A stretch of 9,620 bases of DNA from a virus (Duplodnaviria; Heunggongvirae; Uroviricota; Caudoviricetes). This document shows positions 1 to 9,620 of this stretch, piece by piece (positions within the stretch are counted from its first letter, which is position 1; the number at the start of each line of letters is the position of its first letter). The DNA is taken from IMG/VR virus record IMGVR_UViG_2541047165_000034; one strand, 5' to 3'. The notes below the pieces were generated by a model, which did no database searches, was not told the origin of the DNA, and saw nothing but the letters and a program-made list of their open reading frames with translations. Position numbers and translations under genes: made by a program.

Positions 1-282
1 TTACCGCCGCAGCCGTTCCGGCTTCTTCCACTGGTAAGTATTTTTCGCGCTCTCCCTCCGTTGTTGAGAACGGCGACGGTATGCCAGCAACTCAAGGACT
101 CTGGTTCGTATATTGCGCATATCCACATCATTAAGCTGGATACCATCACGGCGCATCACCTCCACCACTACACGCACATAATTATCTGCGGTCATGCTGT
201 CCGGCTGCGTGGCCTGTTCGTCAACCTGCTGGCTGATTCCGGCGACGCGGCGGATTAATCCCAGTATTTCGGCTTCTGTCAT
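1..282 (-). CDS. hypothetical small protein (93 aa), first gene downstream of the capsid-gene terminator and repeat; arginine-rich C-terminus
   Basis: ORF-track ORF with ATG at 282 and TAA at 1-3, so complete in the window. Co-oriented with the capsid operon; a GGGGG Shine-Dalgarno-like run lies 5-9 nt upstream of the ATG. The plus-strand ORF 61-258 that overlaps it has antisense-like composition. No family recognised by eye. Confidence 0.55.
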   Translation of the reverse strand: MTEAEILGLIRRVAGISQQVDEQATQPDSMTADNYVRVVVEVMRRDGIQLNDVDMRNIRTRVLELLAYRRRSQQRRESAKNTYQWKKPERLRR

Positions 283-352
283 TGTGCCCCCATCGCGCTG
301 GTGAAGAAAACAAGCTCAGATTTTTTGTAAAGAATCTGTCACGCTAAAAGAT

Positions 353-535
353 GTCGAACAAAAAACAACCTTCTTCATCATCTTTTTTACATCAAAATAA
401 TTAAAAACAATCACTTACGCACATGATGATGATGACGATAAAATCAAAAAAATGCGCTTCTTTCCGCGCCGCCCGCCCCGTGTTCAGGCCCACCCCACCA
501 GGAGGACCCGCAAAAAAGGCGGCTGGTGCCGCCTT
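353..535. repeat. copy A of a ~180-bp imperfect direct repeat (partner at 2887-3070)
   Basis: Seen directly: shared blocks GAACAAAAAACAACCT, a purine trinucleotide tract (GATGATGATGATGACGAT versus GGTGGTGGTGATGGTG), ATAAAATCAAAAAAATGCGC, TCCGCGCC, CGCCCCGTG, CAGGCC, ACCCCACCAGGAG, CAAAAAAG, then a hairpin. The middle is AT-rich and variable. Confidence 0.8.
511..535 (-). terminator. rho-independent terminator downstream of the capsid gene
   Basis: Stem GGCGGC (518-523) / GCCGCC (528-533) with loop TGGT. On the minus strand it is followed by TTTTTTG (complement of 511-517). It sits immediately after the capsid stop codon at 540-542. Confidence 0.7.
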
Positions 536-539
536 GTTG

Positions 540-7378: not shown

Positions 7379-7387
7379 GAGTATCAC

Positions 7388-7519
7388 CGTATACTTCTGA
7401 TTAAGAACAGGTATACGTTATTTAGCGACAGGGAACTCTTGAAGACAGGAAAACCAGATACAAAATCGCATATCTGGTTTACCTGACTGAAATCTGGATT
7501 ACAGGGGATAAAACTGGAT
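7388..7519. promoter_or_regulatory. repeat-rich intergenic region upstream of the Xis/AlpA-like gene
   Basis: Inverted repeat CGTATAC (7388-7394) / GTATACG (7411-7417). A 10-bp inverted repeat AAACCAGATA (7451-7460) / TATCTGGTTT (7471-7480) with a 10-nt spacer. CTGGATT at 7494-7500 and 7514-7520, the same half-site as in O1/O3. Confidence 0.45.
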
Positions 7520-8206
7520 TTATTCTTTGTCTCCAATAACTAACTTAAAATCCCTGTTTTTTTGCGGGGATTTTGGATTCATCCCCGACTCCTTAAGCCA
7601 TCTCTCTATAGTCCCAACTACAGGGACATCATTCCATTTATTGCGTAAGTGCGCGTATATCTCTGCGGATAGCCCGGGTAAACTGGCATTAGGGTATTTT
7701 TTCCAAGTGTTACAAGCTATAGATAACGCTGTTGATTTATGCCTGTTTGTTTTTCCTTTCTTTGCTTTACTACGGTCTTCACTGATAATTTTCTTTACAT
7801 TAGCTATATCACGTACTGATTTTAATAAACTCTCCGACACTAAAACCGCATATCTTTCACGTAACTGGTCTGCCAGTCTGTTGAAACCAAGAACTTCAAA
7901 TATAATAGCAGCTTTCAAAACATCATTGAATTCTGAATATACACTATTAAATTTTTTATCAATATCATCACCATACCCAGCACATACAGAAATATTAACC
8001 TTTAAATCCTTATTTTCTATCTCTGACGATAATGATAATCTCTCCTCCAGAGACATTTTAGATGGCGTGATATTTGCCATATCGCATATCATTTTTTTTA
8101 CAAAAGCAGACGCCAGCTCATCTCTAATATAATCTGCAATAGTATTAATATCCTTCGCATCATTATGGTCAAATTCAATTGCAGCAATGATTTTATTTTC
8201 TGACAT
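7520..8206 (-). CDS. hypothetical protein (228 aa), AT-rich; acidic helical N-terminal region and basic, possibly HTH-like C-terminal region
   Basis: The ATG at 8206 lies inside the last codons of int (14-nt overlap) with GGTGG 5 nt upstream. Composition is protein-like, whereas the antisense ORF 7527-8132 is S/L/F-rich. GC content is well below the flanking int and xis genes. No family recognised. Confidence 0.8.
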   Translation of the reverse strand: MSENKIIAAIEFDHNDAKDINTIADYIRDELASAFVKKMICDMANITPSKMSLEERLSLSSEIENKDLKVNISVCAGYGDDIDKKFNSVYSEFNDVLKAAIIFEVLGFNRLADQLRERYAVLVSESLLKSVRDIANVKKIISEDRSKAKKGKTNRHKSTALSIACNTWKKYPNASLPGLSAEIYAHLRNKWNDVPVVGTIERWLKESGMNPKSPQKNRDFKLVIGDKE

Positions 8207-9620
8207 TCAAACCACCATTTGAATTAACGATACTAAATAGTAATGCGCGTTTCTCACTGTCACTCATACTCTCCAGTACAGAAAGCAATTGCGTATCGAT
8301 AGATTTTTTACTCTCAACTAGCCCGGCATGTTCCAGAATTGCCCGTTCTATCCGTGATGCAGGCTCCAGCAGTTCATCAGCACCGAAATGTAAATACCCC
8401 TGCGTTACGTCGGCACTTCGCATAGTGCGGTGATTCATCAGGCGCTTGAGGATGTAATTACCCACGCCCACCAGCTCAGCAACCGTTCCGAACGTCCGGC
8501 GTGCGTCGTGCCACTTAAACGGGACAGGGAAGAGCATTTCATCGTTCGCCTCAGGAATGGTAGCCGCGCTTATCCGGTCTATGATGTGCCGTGTCTCCTG
8601 AATCACTCCCTTCACGCCAGGAAACACCAGCACATCATCAGCAGCTTTGTTGTTTAGCCTGCGAAGAAACATTTTCCGCAACGTATCAGTGATCGGTAAT
8701 TCGAGCGGATCCCCGTTTTTCGTGGTGTCTATCCAGAAAAAGCGACCGCCCATATTCACGCGATCCCACGTAAGGCCAAAAACTTCTGATTTCCTCAGTC
8801 CGGTAAACAGTGCCATTTCCACGGCATCACATACCGTAACAGCTATATCATCCCTTTCCTGTTCGCCCTGGTCGCGCACAGCAGCTACAGCAGCAAACCA
8901 GCGGGGAAAATCATGCAGGCGGATACGTTCCGTTTTTCTTACCGTTCCGTGCCACTGGCGCTTGGTGCTCAGTACCAGAGTCGGCGGATCCGGTAAAAGA
9001 GTATTACCCGCATCATCACGGTAATGATCATGCGCAAACCGACACACAGCACGTAGCGCACGCGCCCATAAATCGGCCTGTGCCTTGCTTCCTGTACCAA
9101 CCCCAGCCCGTAACGTGGTTTTATCAGCACCGAACCATACAGCCCCATCAGTGATGGCCTTATGCCGTTGTTCCACCCGTTCGCGGGAAATACTGGCGAG
9201 GGTATGGGCCATCCAGTCACCGGAATAATTCTGTAATATGCTGCGGTACTGTTTTTCTGTGGCGGGTTTCAGGCGGTGGCCACGATTTTTTACGTAGGCG
9301 TCAATCGCCTCACTCAGCGTTATCATGGCCTTGTTGTTAGTGCGCTTTGCTATGTTCGGATTTATCCCCGTTGTGGCGACTTCGCCAAGGAGTTCCATAG
9401 CTTTAGCCCTGGCATTATCCACGCTCAGATCAGGAAAACGCCCCAGCGTTGCACGAATAAATTTTCCGTTACGCTTACGGGAAATGCAGAAACTTTTCAC
9501 ACCAGACGAACCTACACGGACACGCAGCCCGTTAACCTCCGTATCACCATATTCGACCTGTCCATGTTCCGGCGTTGGCAGTTCTGCAATTTTTACTTTA
9601 GAGAATCTGAATAATTTCAC
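8193..9620 (-). CDS. int: tyrosine site-specific integrase, P4-type, with arm-binding N-terminal domain
   Basis: N-terminal region GLRVRVGSSGVKSFCISRKRNGKFIRATLGRFPDLSVDNARAKAMELL resembles the arm-DNA-binding domain of P4-like integrases. The C-terminal catalytic region has HDARRTF, LMNH and GYLH. The ORF reaches the window edge with GTG at 9618-9620, so the true start may lie at or beyond the edge. Confidence 0.92.
   Translation of the reverse strand: MKLFRFSKVKIAELPTPEHGQVEYGDTEVNGLRVRVGSSGVKSFCISRKRNGKFIRATLGRFPDLSVDNARAKAMELLGEVATTGINPNIAKRTNNKAMITLSEAIDAYVKNRGHRLKPATEKQYRSILQNYSGDWMAHTLASISRERVEQRHKAITDGAVWFGADKTTLRAGVGTGSKAQADLWARALRAVCRFAHDHYRDDAGNTLLPDPPTLVLSTKRQWHGTVRKTERIRLHDFPRWFAAVAAVRDQGEQERDDIAVTVCDAVEMALFTGLRKSEVFGLTWDRVNMGGRFFWIDTTKNGDPLELPITDTLRKMFLRRLNNKAADDVLVFPGVKGVIQETRHIIDRISAATIPEANDEMLFPVPFKWHDARRTFGTVAELVGVGNYILKRLMNHRTMRSADVTQGYLHFGADELLEPASRIERAILEHAGLVESKKSIDTQLLSVLESMSDSEKRALLFSIVNSNGGLNVRK

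Follow-up and report, generated by a model that had tools for sequence, protein, structure and literature searches.

Gram-negative phage-inducible chromosomal islands (GN-PICIs) are helper-dependent phage satellites recognized by an int and an alpA gene, unidirectional transcription, a pri gene with an iteron-containing origin directly 3' of it, and the frequent presence of capsid-morphogenesis genes (PMC6092414). A major capsid gene is found in 21 of 29 reference GN-PICIs, and four zones are distinguished along these islands: integration, Bro, replication and late (PMC10111431). The islands that occupy tRNA-Ile2 form a single genotype with a CLP_protease gene, phylogenetically distinctive integrases and no alpA (Tommasini 2023, PMC10111431). 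Composites of such an island with an invading helper-embedded PICI (HE-PICI) measure 20.6 kb (PMC10111431), which gives approximately 10.3 kb per unit. Almost all of the element described here is contained in a stretch of viral DNA of 9,620 nucleotides, IMG/VR record IMGVR_UViG_2541047165_000034, the whole of which is called the window below. With a probability of roughly 85%, the window comprises the coding part of a GN-PICI of 10,387 bp lodged in the tRNA-Ile2 gene ileX of Escherichia coli O111:H8.

The island is an intact member of a described satellite family, and its genotype has very likely been catalogued already. A search of the supplementary tables of Tommasini et al. for the accessions of the genomes with identical copies gave no match. 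The details that are new concern two cos-like repeats, one of them 87% identical to the cos region of Shiga toxin (Stx) phages, the lack of an Rpp homolog, and a capsid lineage approximately 51% identical to phage copies with a dN/dS of approximately 0.09.

Boundaries, genes and replication module of the island

Five complete E. coli chromosomes of O111:H8 type carry the window at 100% identity. The left flank in NZ_AP026106.1 comprises rpoD, mug and a tRNA-Ile gene with anticodon CAT (tRNA-Ile2, ileX), followed by a spacer of 540 bp and window position 1; on the right, nfeF is reached 280 bp past the int start. The window runs from the first to the last coding sequence, and the element goes on for approximately 590 bp leftward and 200 bp rightward to its att sites. 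These share a 65-nt repeat of the 3' tRNA half, which begins in the anticodon loop and runs through CCA; its copies are 10,387 bp apart, the distal one just past int. A preliminary description, drawn from the sequence of the window, had suggested a tRNA or tmRNA att site to the right of 9620. A displaced tRNA 3' half, attR, is indeed present there (L001 24801-24865, approximately 9801 to 9865 in window coordinates), but the intact tRNA-Ile2 gene, attL, stands to the left of position 1 (L001 14384-14478, approximately -617 to -523). The attR copy retains the native T-arm and the native terminator. In the attL copy, which is the working tRNA, the T-stem bears paired compensatory changes (GTTGG/CCAAC vs. 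the native GCTGG/CCAGC), as expected of a hybrid gene, and the 3' half of the working tRNA-Ile2 therefore appears to have been supplied by the island. The native half at attR is complete in this island; some PICI attR fragments have been reported as deleted in that part. A doubled motif, AGGATACCTATAGGATACCG, is located approximately 75-130 bp inside the island from each att core, and these pairs are plausible arm-type integrase sites.

The same description had proposed a satellite-type island distinct from both classic P4 and a prophage, had left room for a capsid-forming PICI (cf-PICI), and had named a full tailed-phage genome in the flanks as the finding that would speak for an ordinary prophage. 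Across 15 kb of flank on each side only core E. coli genes are found and nothing else phage-like, with tRNA-Ile2 and mug bordering the island on one side and nfeF on the other. Pfam and PHROG scans, together with the flank annotation, detected no portal, adaptor/connector, terS, terL, HNH, tail or lysis gene inside the att sites, and the P4 genes sid, delta and psu are absent by tblastn. An att-bounded island that is devoid of portal, terminase, HNH and connector genes is therefore neither a cf-PICI nor a prophage; the satellite proposal holds, and the cf-PICI option falls away. Genes were called from a six-frame list of open reading frames (ORFs) together with Pfam, NCBIfam and PHROG scans, which yielded 13 credible genes, all with intact ORFs and 12 of them on the minus strand. 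The features are as follows, from the integrase end.

8193-9620, minus strand: tyrosine integrase of 475 aa, tRNA-Ile2-specific (Arm-DNA-bind_3, 2.6e-13; Phage_integrase, 1.3e-12)
7520-8206, minus strand: 228-aa protein coupled to int; GC content 32-36%, variable N-terminus and conserved C-terminal domain of approximately 90 aa
7190-7387, minus strand: HTH_17/excisionase-family protein, positional analog of AlpA (HTH_17, 1.3e-12; TIGR01764 'excise', 6.7e-10)
6872-7051, plus strand: YlcI/YnfO family gene, the sole plus-strand gene (NF041551, 2.4e-20)
6676-6871, no strand: divergent regulatory region with two TACTGGAATCCAGTA palindromes, the copies of the exact 14-nt repeat D7
6472-6675, minus strand: Icd-like small protein heading the leftward replication operon (NF033153, 1.7e-19, 69.6 bits against a cut-off of 25)
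6159-6479, minus strand: 106-aa protein (phrog_15327, unknown function)
5853-6152, minus strand: DUF4222 protein (PF13973, 7.2e-17), positioned as in EcCICFT073
4039-5871, minus strand: Pri replication initiator of 605/610 aa (D5_N, DUF5906, Pox_D5), the likely true start being the ATG at 5856
3804-4024, no strand: predicted replication origin with 10 iterons, (C)TGTTCACC in both orientations around AT-rich stretches
3506-3751, minus strand: 81-aa protein conserved in GN-PICIs (phrog_1231)
3087-3509, minus strand: SSB (PF00436, 4.9e-15)
2894-3072, minus strand: cos-like repeat copy B, analog of cos2, sharing direct repeats D1 and D5 with copy A and preceded by a terminator hairpin
2426-2653, minus strand: 75-aa protein with a 4-nt overlap with the capsid gene start (phrog_4934), 99-100% conserved in the related islands L002 and L003
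540-2429, minus strand: ClpP-like prohead protease/major capsid fusion of 629 aa (CLP_protease, 5.6e-33; Phage_capsid_4, 1.8e-54)
347-535, minus strand: cos-like repeat copy A, analog of cos1, preceded by a terminator hairpin and matching, at 87% identity over 170 nt, the sequence that directly precedes terS in VT1-Sakai, Stx2a phages and the O157 Stx1a prophage
1-282, minus strand: 93-aa terminal gene conserved among GN-PICIs (phrog_1561)

The layout is that of a PICI, as had been proposed, with the gene order of EcCICFT073. The order given earlier (int, Xis/AlpA-like gene, initiator, iteron origin, SSB, protease/capsid) stands, with YlcI/YnfO as the one gene on the plus strand, but the protein likened to AlpA is of the HTH_17/excisionase family and not a Phage_AlpA protein.

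GN-PICI origins that have been defined experimentally lie directly 3' of pri and consist of iteron sets around AT-rich DNA (PMC6092414). In the window, nine exact copies of TGTTCACC and one with a single mismatch are found at 3804-4024, directly 3' of pri, in sets of both orientations that surround AT-rich DNA; the total for the window was reached by none of 200 shuffles. As far as sequence can tell, the island has its own pri and an iteron origin immediately 3' of it. Pri comprises a TOPRIM-like N-terminal domain, D5_N, an SF3 helicase and a C-terminal origin-binding domain. By BLASTP it is 51% identical to P4 alpha over alpha residues 320-771, with no match to the alpha primase domain (residues 1-320). 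Domain by domain, the N-terminal 149 aa have no hit to P4 alpha and are 65% identical to EcCICFT073 Pri, and identities to the two proteins, respectively, are 39 and 37% for D5_N, 63 and 55% for the helicase, and 49 and 32% for the C-terminal DNA-binding part. The octamer TGTTCACC is the annotated 'ori type 1 repeat' of P4 ori and crr. The cf-PICI record vB_KppS-Ant (LR881103.1) has a Pri 74% identical to that of the island, with eight TGTTCACC copies at the same place, and the sequence of EcCICFT073 contains none. From these comparisons the origin-recognition part of Pri really does appear to belong to the P4-alpha specificity group, and its N-terminal domain is assigned as PICI-specific. This specificity is, however, spread through PICIs and cf-PICIs, and elsewhere the element does not resemble P4. 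The P4 relationship claimed earlier for the replication module is borne out by the alpha-related segment of Pri and the type-1 iteron; the Icd-like ORF named there is also present (NF033153). The further claim that the satellite is a 'hybrid' survives in part: the helicase and DNA-binding parts (approximately 50-63%) and the iteron are of P4 type, but the gene order is that of EcCICFT073, the same iteron is present in a cf-PICI, and the N-terminus is PICI-specific. A dN/dS of 0.07 indicates purifying selection on pri.

The integration module has relatives in islands of Klebsiella. The integrase is 75% identical to that of Klebsiella cf-PICI-like islands and 21% identical to P4 Int. The 228-aa gene begins before int ends, with a 14-nt overlap across the int stop codon. 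Its relatives invariably have the gene for a 474/475-aa integrase on one side and an HTH_17 gene on the other, in the Klebsiella cf-PICI-like islands L010-L012 as well, so that int (75%), the 228-aa family and HTH_17 (71% to that of L010) form a conserved trio. The gene between int and the helix-turn-helix (HTH) gene is therefore not free cargo. The idea of a defence gene in this accessory slot is unsupported, as PADLOC returned no defence-system match for the eight small or unknown proteins. The C-terminal domain of the 228-aa protein has weak winged-helix-like fold matches only. Between ylcI and the Icd-like operon, two exact and perfect copies of the palindrome TACTGGAATCCAGTA (6771-6784 and 6839-6852), with a related GTGGAATCCAC in between, overlap facing promoter-like hexamers on both strands. 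They are candidate operators of a small repressor, possibly the YlcI/YnfO protein.

Several other candidates were set aside. A 252-aa minus-strand ORF (6472-7230) runs antisense through ylcI and the promoter region, has family support for its last 67 codons (the Icd-like part) only, and was rejected as a gene. The 93-aa protein was rejected as an Rpp, which is the 144-aa c1503 product, and its matches among PDB sequences were to acyl carrier proteins at chance level only. There is no similarity between the 106-aa ORF and P4 ORF106, and their equal length is thus a coincidence. An Rfam scan of the window (E <= 0.1) found no immunity RNA of the C4, isrK or CI type, and its single hit, at 3879-4025 to the eukaryotic microRNA family mir-4868 (28 bits, the cut-off being 70), is produced artificially by inverted iteron pairs in the origin.

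Capsid fusion, cos-like repeats and likely helper

The protease part of the fusion protein retains the ClpP Ser (GMAASM) and His (MIHAP) motifs, aligned with solved ClpPs. The closest phage homologs are 51-52% identical, and none exceeds 52% in a collection of 50,697 phage records; the gene therefore represents an old satellite-borne lineage rather than a fresh capture. This lineage is found in 144 of 5426 complete E. coli genomes (full-length in 143), almost all at 95% nucleotide identity or above and many of them Shiga-toxin producers. Comparison with the more distant copies L013 and L014 (26 synonymous and 8 non-synonymous changes) gives a dN/dS of 0.087-0.10, L002 and L003 being uninformative at 99.6% nucleotide identity, and this value indicates that the capsid gene is maintained by selection. 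By arithmetic, a head made for a helper genome of approximately 46 kb would be filled by a tetramer of the island (41.5 kb), and a monomer would need a much smaller one. At 2112-2135, across the MMMIH/His-motif codons of the protease, GAAAACGCGATGATGATGATACAT is a near-match to the published HE-PICI attB C:CLP_protease:110, so that a further satellite could potentially integrate into this island.

The 75-aa ORF and the capsid gene are flanked by a direct repeat of approximately 180 nt, with copies 2.54 kb apart, copy A 3' of the capsid gene and copy B 3' of ssb. The two copies are 81% identical over 100 nt, and a terminator-like hairpin precedes each. They were recognized through repeat analysis and similarity to phages. 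An unannotated region of VT1-Sakai and several Stx2a- and Stx2d-converting phages matches copy A at 87% identity over 170 nt; the VT1-Sakai match lies between Rz and the DUF1441 small-terminase gene and ends 69 nt before the terminase start. A related region in mEp213 abuts the end of the record just before terS. The cos sites of lambdoid phages are located just upstream of terS. The GGGCGGGCGG core of the repeats is a candidate cohesive-end site, and the conserved core ACACGGGGCGGGCGGGCGCGGAAA resembles lambda cosN; matches to the lambda cosN 12-mer with up to three mismatches are no commoner than chance in the window. Copy A is phage-like along its full length, whereas in copy B the likeness to phage cos regions is confined to the cosN-like core. 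In EcCICFT073, too, there are two cos sites, only one of them important (PMC6092414). The cosB of EcCICFT073 is not that of the helper, and RppA retargets the helper TerS (PMC6739421). No RppA homolog was found in the window. Given this and the phage-like character of copy A throughout, we infer that the unmodified helper terminase is used directly.

The probable helpers are Stx-converting lambdoid phages. The nearest phage capsid fusions belong to the same phages as the copy A match. A relative in which copy A is 100% and the capsid protein 99.4% identical sits in the terL gene of an Stx1a prophage, and it is the cos region of this prophage that gives the 87% match. A cos-terS region of the VT1-Sakai type is present at 80% coverage or more in 402 of the 5426 complete E. 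coli genomes.

Proposed life cycle and alternative readings

The architecture is observed, and every dynamic step is drawn by analogy with EcCICFT073. Induction of, or infection by, a lambdoid helper would switch on the gene for the HTH_17 protein, the AlpA analog, and the leftward operon. Int and the HTH_17 protein, possibly with the 228-aa protein, would then excise the island at a 19-bp core in the tRNA. Pri would bind the CTGTTCACC iterons that directly follow its gene on the 3' side and, together with the island SSB, replicate the element into concatemers. Helper TerS and TerL would recognize copy A, which is nearly the cos region of those Stx-converting lambdoid phages that have a head of VT1-Sakai type, and package the island in helper-built virions. 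The capsid fusion, as a long-diverged paralog of the helper head protein, would probably co-assemble or compete with the helper capsid, leading to interference, a change of capsid size, or both.

A more specific proposal makes the fusion, rather than an Rpp, the device by which the island hijacks Stx-converting lambdoid phages. The diverged protein (approximately 51% identical to that of the helper, dN/dS approximately 0.09) would co-assemble with or replace the head protein and form satellite-sized or phage-excluding capsids, and the helper portal and terminase would package from a near-native cos site. This is a doubtful proposal. If true, it would describe a 'capsid-only' strategy between classical PICIs and cf-PICIs, and the islands would naturally counteract the production of Stx phages in enterohaemorrhagic E. 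coli.

Several points weigh against the assignment of the window to a functional GN-PICI with this life cycle. Induction, excision, replication and transfer of the element are all argued from EcCICFT073. The HTH_17 protein is not a member of Pfam Phage_AlpA and has no BLAST similarity to EcCICFT073 AlpA. The capsid gene of EcCICFT073, which is of another type, is needed for neither transfer nor interference (PMC6092414). The repeats are labeled cos from where they lie and from their likeness to phage regions, and with no Rpp or TerS a preference of the packaging machinery for the island over the helper is unexplained. Finally, the host strain CEC01311 has one megablast place for the whole window, so that a resident prophage with this cos type may be absent and the island would then depend on an incoming helper.

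The last of these points, the lack of a packaging redirector and the carriage of a phage-type capsid gene with cos-like DNA would also suit a decayed lambdoid prophage remnant, or a defective and immobile satellite kept by vertical descent, since at least one host genome has no other match to the window. Such an origin is improbable. Both att sites and all 13 ORFs are intact, the genes follow the unidirectional order of satellites with int pointing inward, and purifying selection acts on both the capsid gene (0.09) and pri (0.07). With approximately 51% identity to any phage copy, the capsid gene is not a fresh prophage fragment. Near-identical forms of the modules are, moreover, found at no fewer than five integration sites with different integrases. 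The replication and late zones (95-99% identity) recur next to int modules of other kinds, both between mppA and pgrR and within the terL gene of an Stx1a prophage. At the tRNA-Pro/yejM and cspD-clpS sites, the capsid cassette is joined by RepA-type helicases and by integrases unlike that of the island. The copy in terL (L002 10505-22975, in E. coli O157 FDAARGOS_293; capsid 99.4%, Pri 97%) has a different module of int, HTH and BRO-N genes and splits the large-terminase gene of the prophage into two annotated pseudogene halves. The ClpP/capsid fusion gene of that prophage is itself frameshifted.

It is less probable still that the element is a cf-PICI, or one recently truncated, which makes its own capsids and steals tails only. 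It does encode a protease and a major capsid protein; the Pri of vB_KppS-Ant is 74% identical and is served by the same TGTTCACC origin, and the int, 228-aa and HTH_17 trio is present in Klebsiella cf-PICI-like islands as well. Against this, 5 of 11 core components are found where at least 9 are expected (PMC10085698), with terS, terL, portal, HNH, adaptor and connector genes lacking. The capsid is of the ClpP-fusion type of lambdoid helpers and not the set of Phage_capsid, Peptidase_S78 and portal found in L009-L012, and the island ends with the 93-aa gene, as EcCICFT073 does, which shows that it has not been cut short. One of the Klebsiella contigs with a cf-PICI-like island (L010 5982-6200 and 6584-8008) has that island adjoining ogr and tail genes of a P2-like prophage, and it may be a satellite adjacent to a potential helper. 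An equally remote reading, a P4-like satellite exploiting a P2-like helper, could draw on the Pri helicase and DNA-binding parts (63 and 49% identical to alpha), the P4 type-1 iteron, the Icd-like ORF and the small excisionase-like HTH gene, but it founders on the lack of sid, delta, psu, epsilon and P4-type int homologs (at best 3 of 7 core components, with at least 5 expected), on the replacement of the alpha primase domain by one that has no alpha match and is 65% identical to that of EcCICFT073 Pri, and on cos-like sites that match lambdoid Stx phages and not P2.

As a matter of classification, the assignment to the GN-PICIs matters little, the family being described and the genotype probably so. 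Should the helper relationship be real, satellites in Shiga-toxin-producing E. coli (O111:H8, O157:H7, O145:H28) could reduce the output of Stx phages or divert it, and could carry DNA from one of these pathogens to another. This lineage is also a natural system in which to examine the role of PICI capsid genes, a question raised by the dispensable capsid gene of EcCICFT073.

Comparison with described satellites

P4 and the island have in common the alpha-type helicase and origin-binding domains, the TGTTCACC iteron, and a cluster directly 3' of the initiator gene, as with P4 crr. P4 has both ori and crr, however, whereas the island is without a second iteron cluster and without an alpha-type primase domain, and it differs in integrase and in helper type. 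Homology to P4 is confined to the helicase and DNA-binding part of alpha: when the entire att-delimited island was searched by tblastn with P4 Sid, Delta, Psu, Epsilon, Int and Vis, all E values were above 0.3.

The cf-PICIs (Alqurainy 2023; vB_KppS-Ant) share with the island the Pri family and the iterons and, in Klebsiella examples, a related module of int, 228-aa and HTH_17 genes. They carry terS, terL, portal, protease, capsid and connector genes; of these, the island has the protease/capsid fusion only.

A Gram-positive satellite, SaPIbov5, provides a parallel at the level of strategy. It has the helper cos site and a diverged homolog of the major capsid protein, Ccm, with no TerS of its own, in sequences unrelated to those of the island. 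Ccm has been shown to make small capsids, whereas the fusion protein of the island is known from its sequence.

Measured against PICI definitions, the island falls within the range of approximately 8-15 kb at 10,387 bp, with a specific att site, direct repeats and its own intact integrase. Twelve of 13 genes are co-oriented, with an HTH_17 gene rather than Phage_AlpA in the AlpA position. A protease/capsid fusion and two cos-like repeats are present, and tail, lysis and full head-packaging modules are not. SatelliteFinder defines a PICI by at least four of five core components (int, regulator, primase-replicase, capsid and terS) and by the lack of tail, holin, portal and connector genes, the capsid component being typical of Enterobacteria (PMC10085698). 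By domain content, as distinct from the profiles of that program, the island has four of the five, lacking terS, and none of the excluded genes; it would be of Type B.

The closest likeness in organization is to EcCICFT073. At 11.4 kb (10.4 kb for the island), EcCICFT073 has the same unidirectional transcription, an iteron origin 3' of pri, two cos-like sites and no terS, and the two elements have a common order of int, HTH, reverse YlcI/YnfO, Icd-like, DUF4222, Pri, small ORF, SSB, capsid and terminal 93-aa genes. Protein identities between them are 92% for the Icd-like protein, 85% for the 81-aa ORF, 80% for the 93-aa ORF, 70% for SSB, 62% for YlcI, 47% for Pri over its full length and 35% for the DUF4222 protein. 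They differ in the lambda E-type capsid, the gpD-like decoration gene, PerC and RppA of EcCICFT073, for none of which was a homolog found by search of the window. The iterons of EcCICFT073 are not TGTTCACC, and its AlpA and Int are unrelated or distant to those of the island. Its cosB is unlike that of the helper and needs Rpp, whereas copy A of the island is 87% identical to the phage cos region over its whole length.

Within the scheme of Tommasini, the window copy, in a chromosomal tRNA gene, does not have an HE-PICI location, which is defined as a late gene of a prophage, whereas its relative in terL does; nor has the window copy been invaded by an HE-PICI. Its Bro zone is minimal, consisting of YlcI/YnfO with no BRO-N. 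The pairing of a P4-alpha-related replication protein with a captured capsid gene is already known in the GN-PICI family, of which this island is a well-kept, ordinary example. It agrees with the tRNA-Ile2 CLP_protease PICIs in integration site, CLP_protease late gene, distinctive integrase, lack of Phage_AlpA, length of approximately 10.3 kb and four-zone layout.

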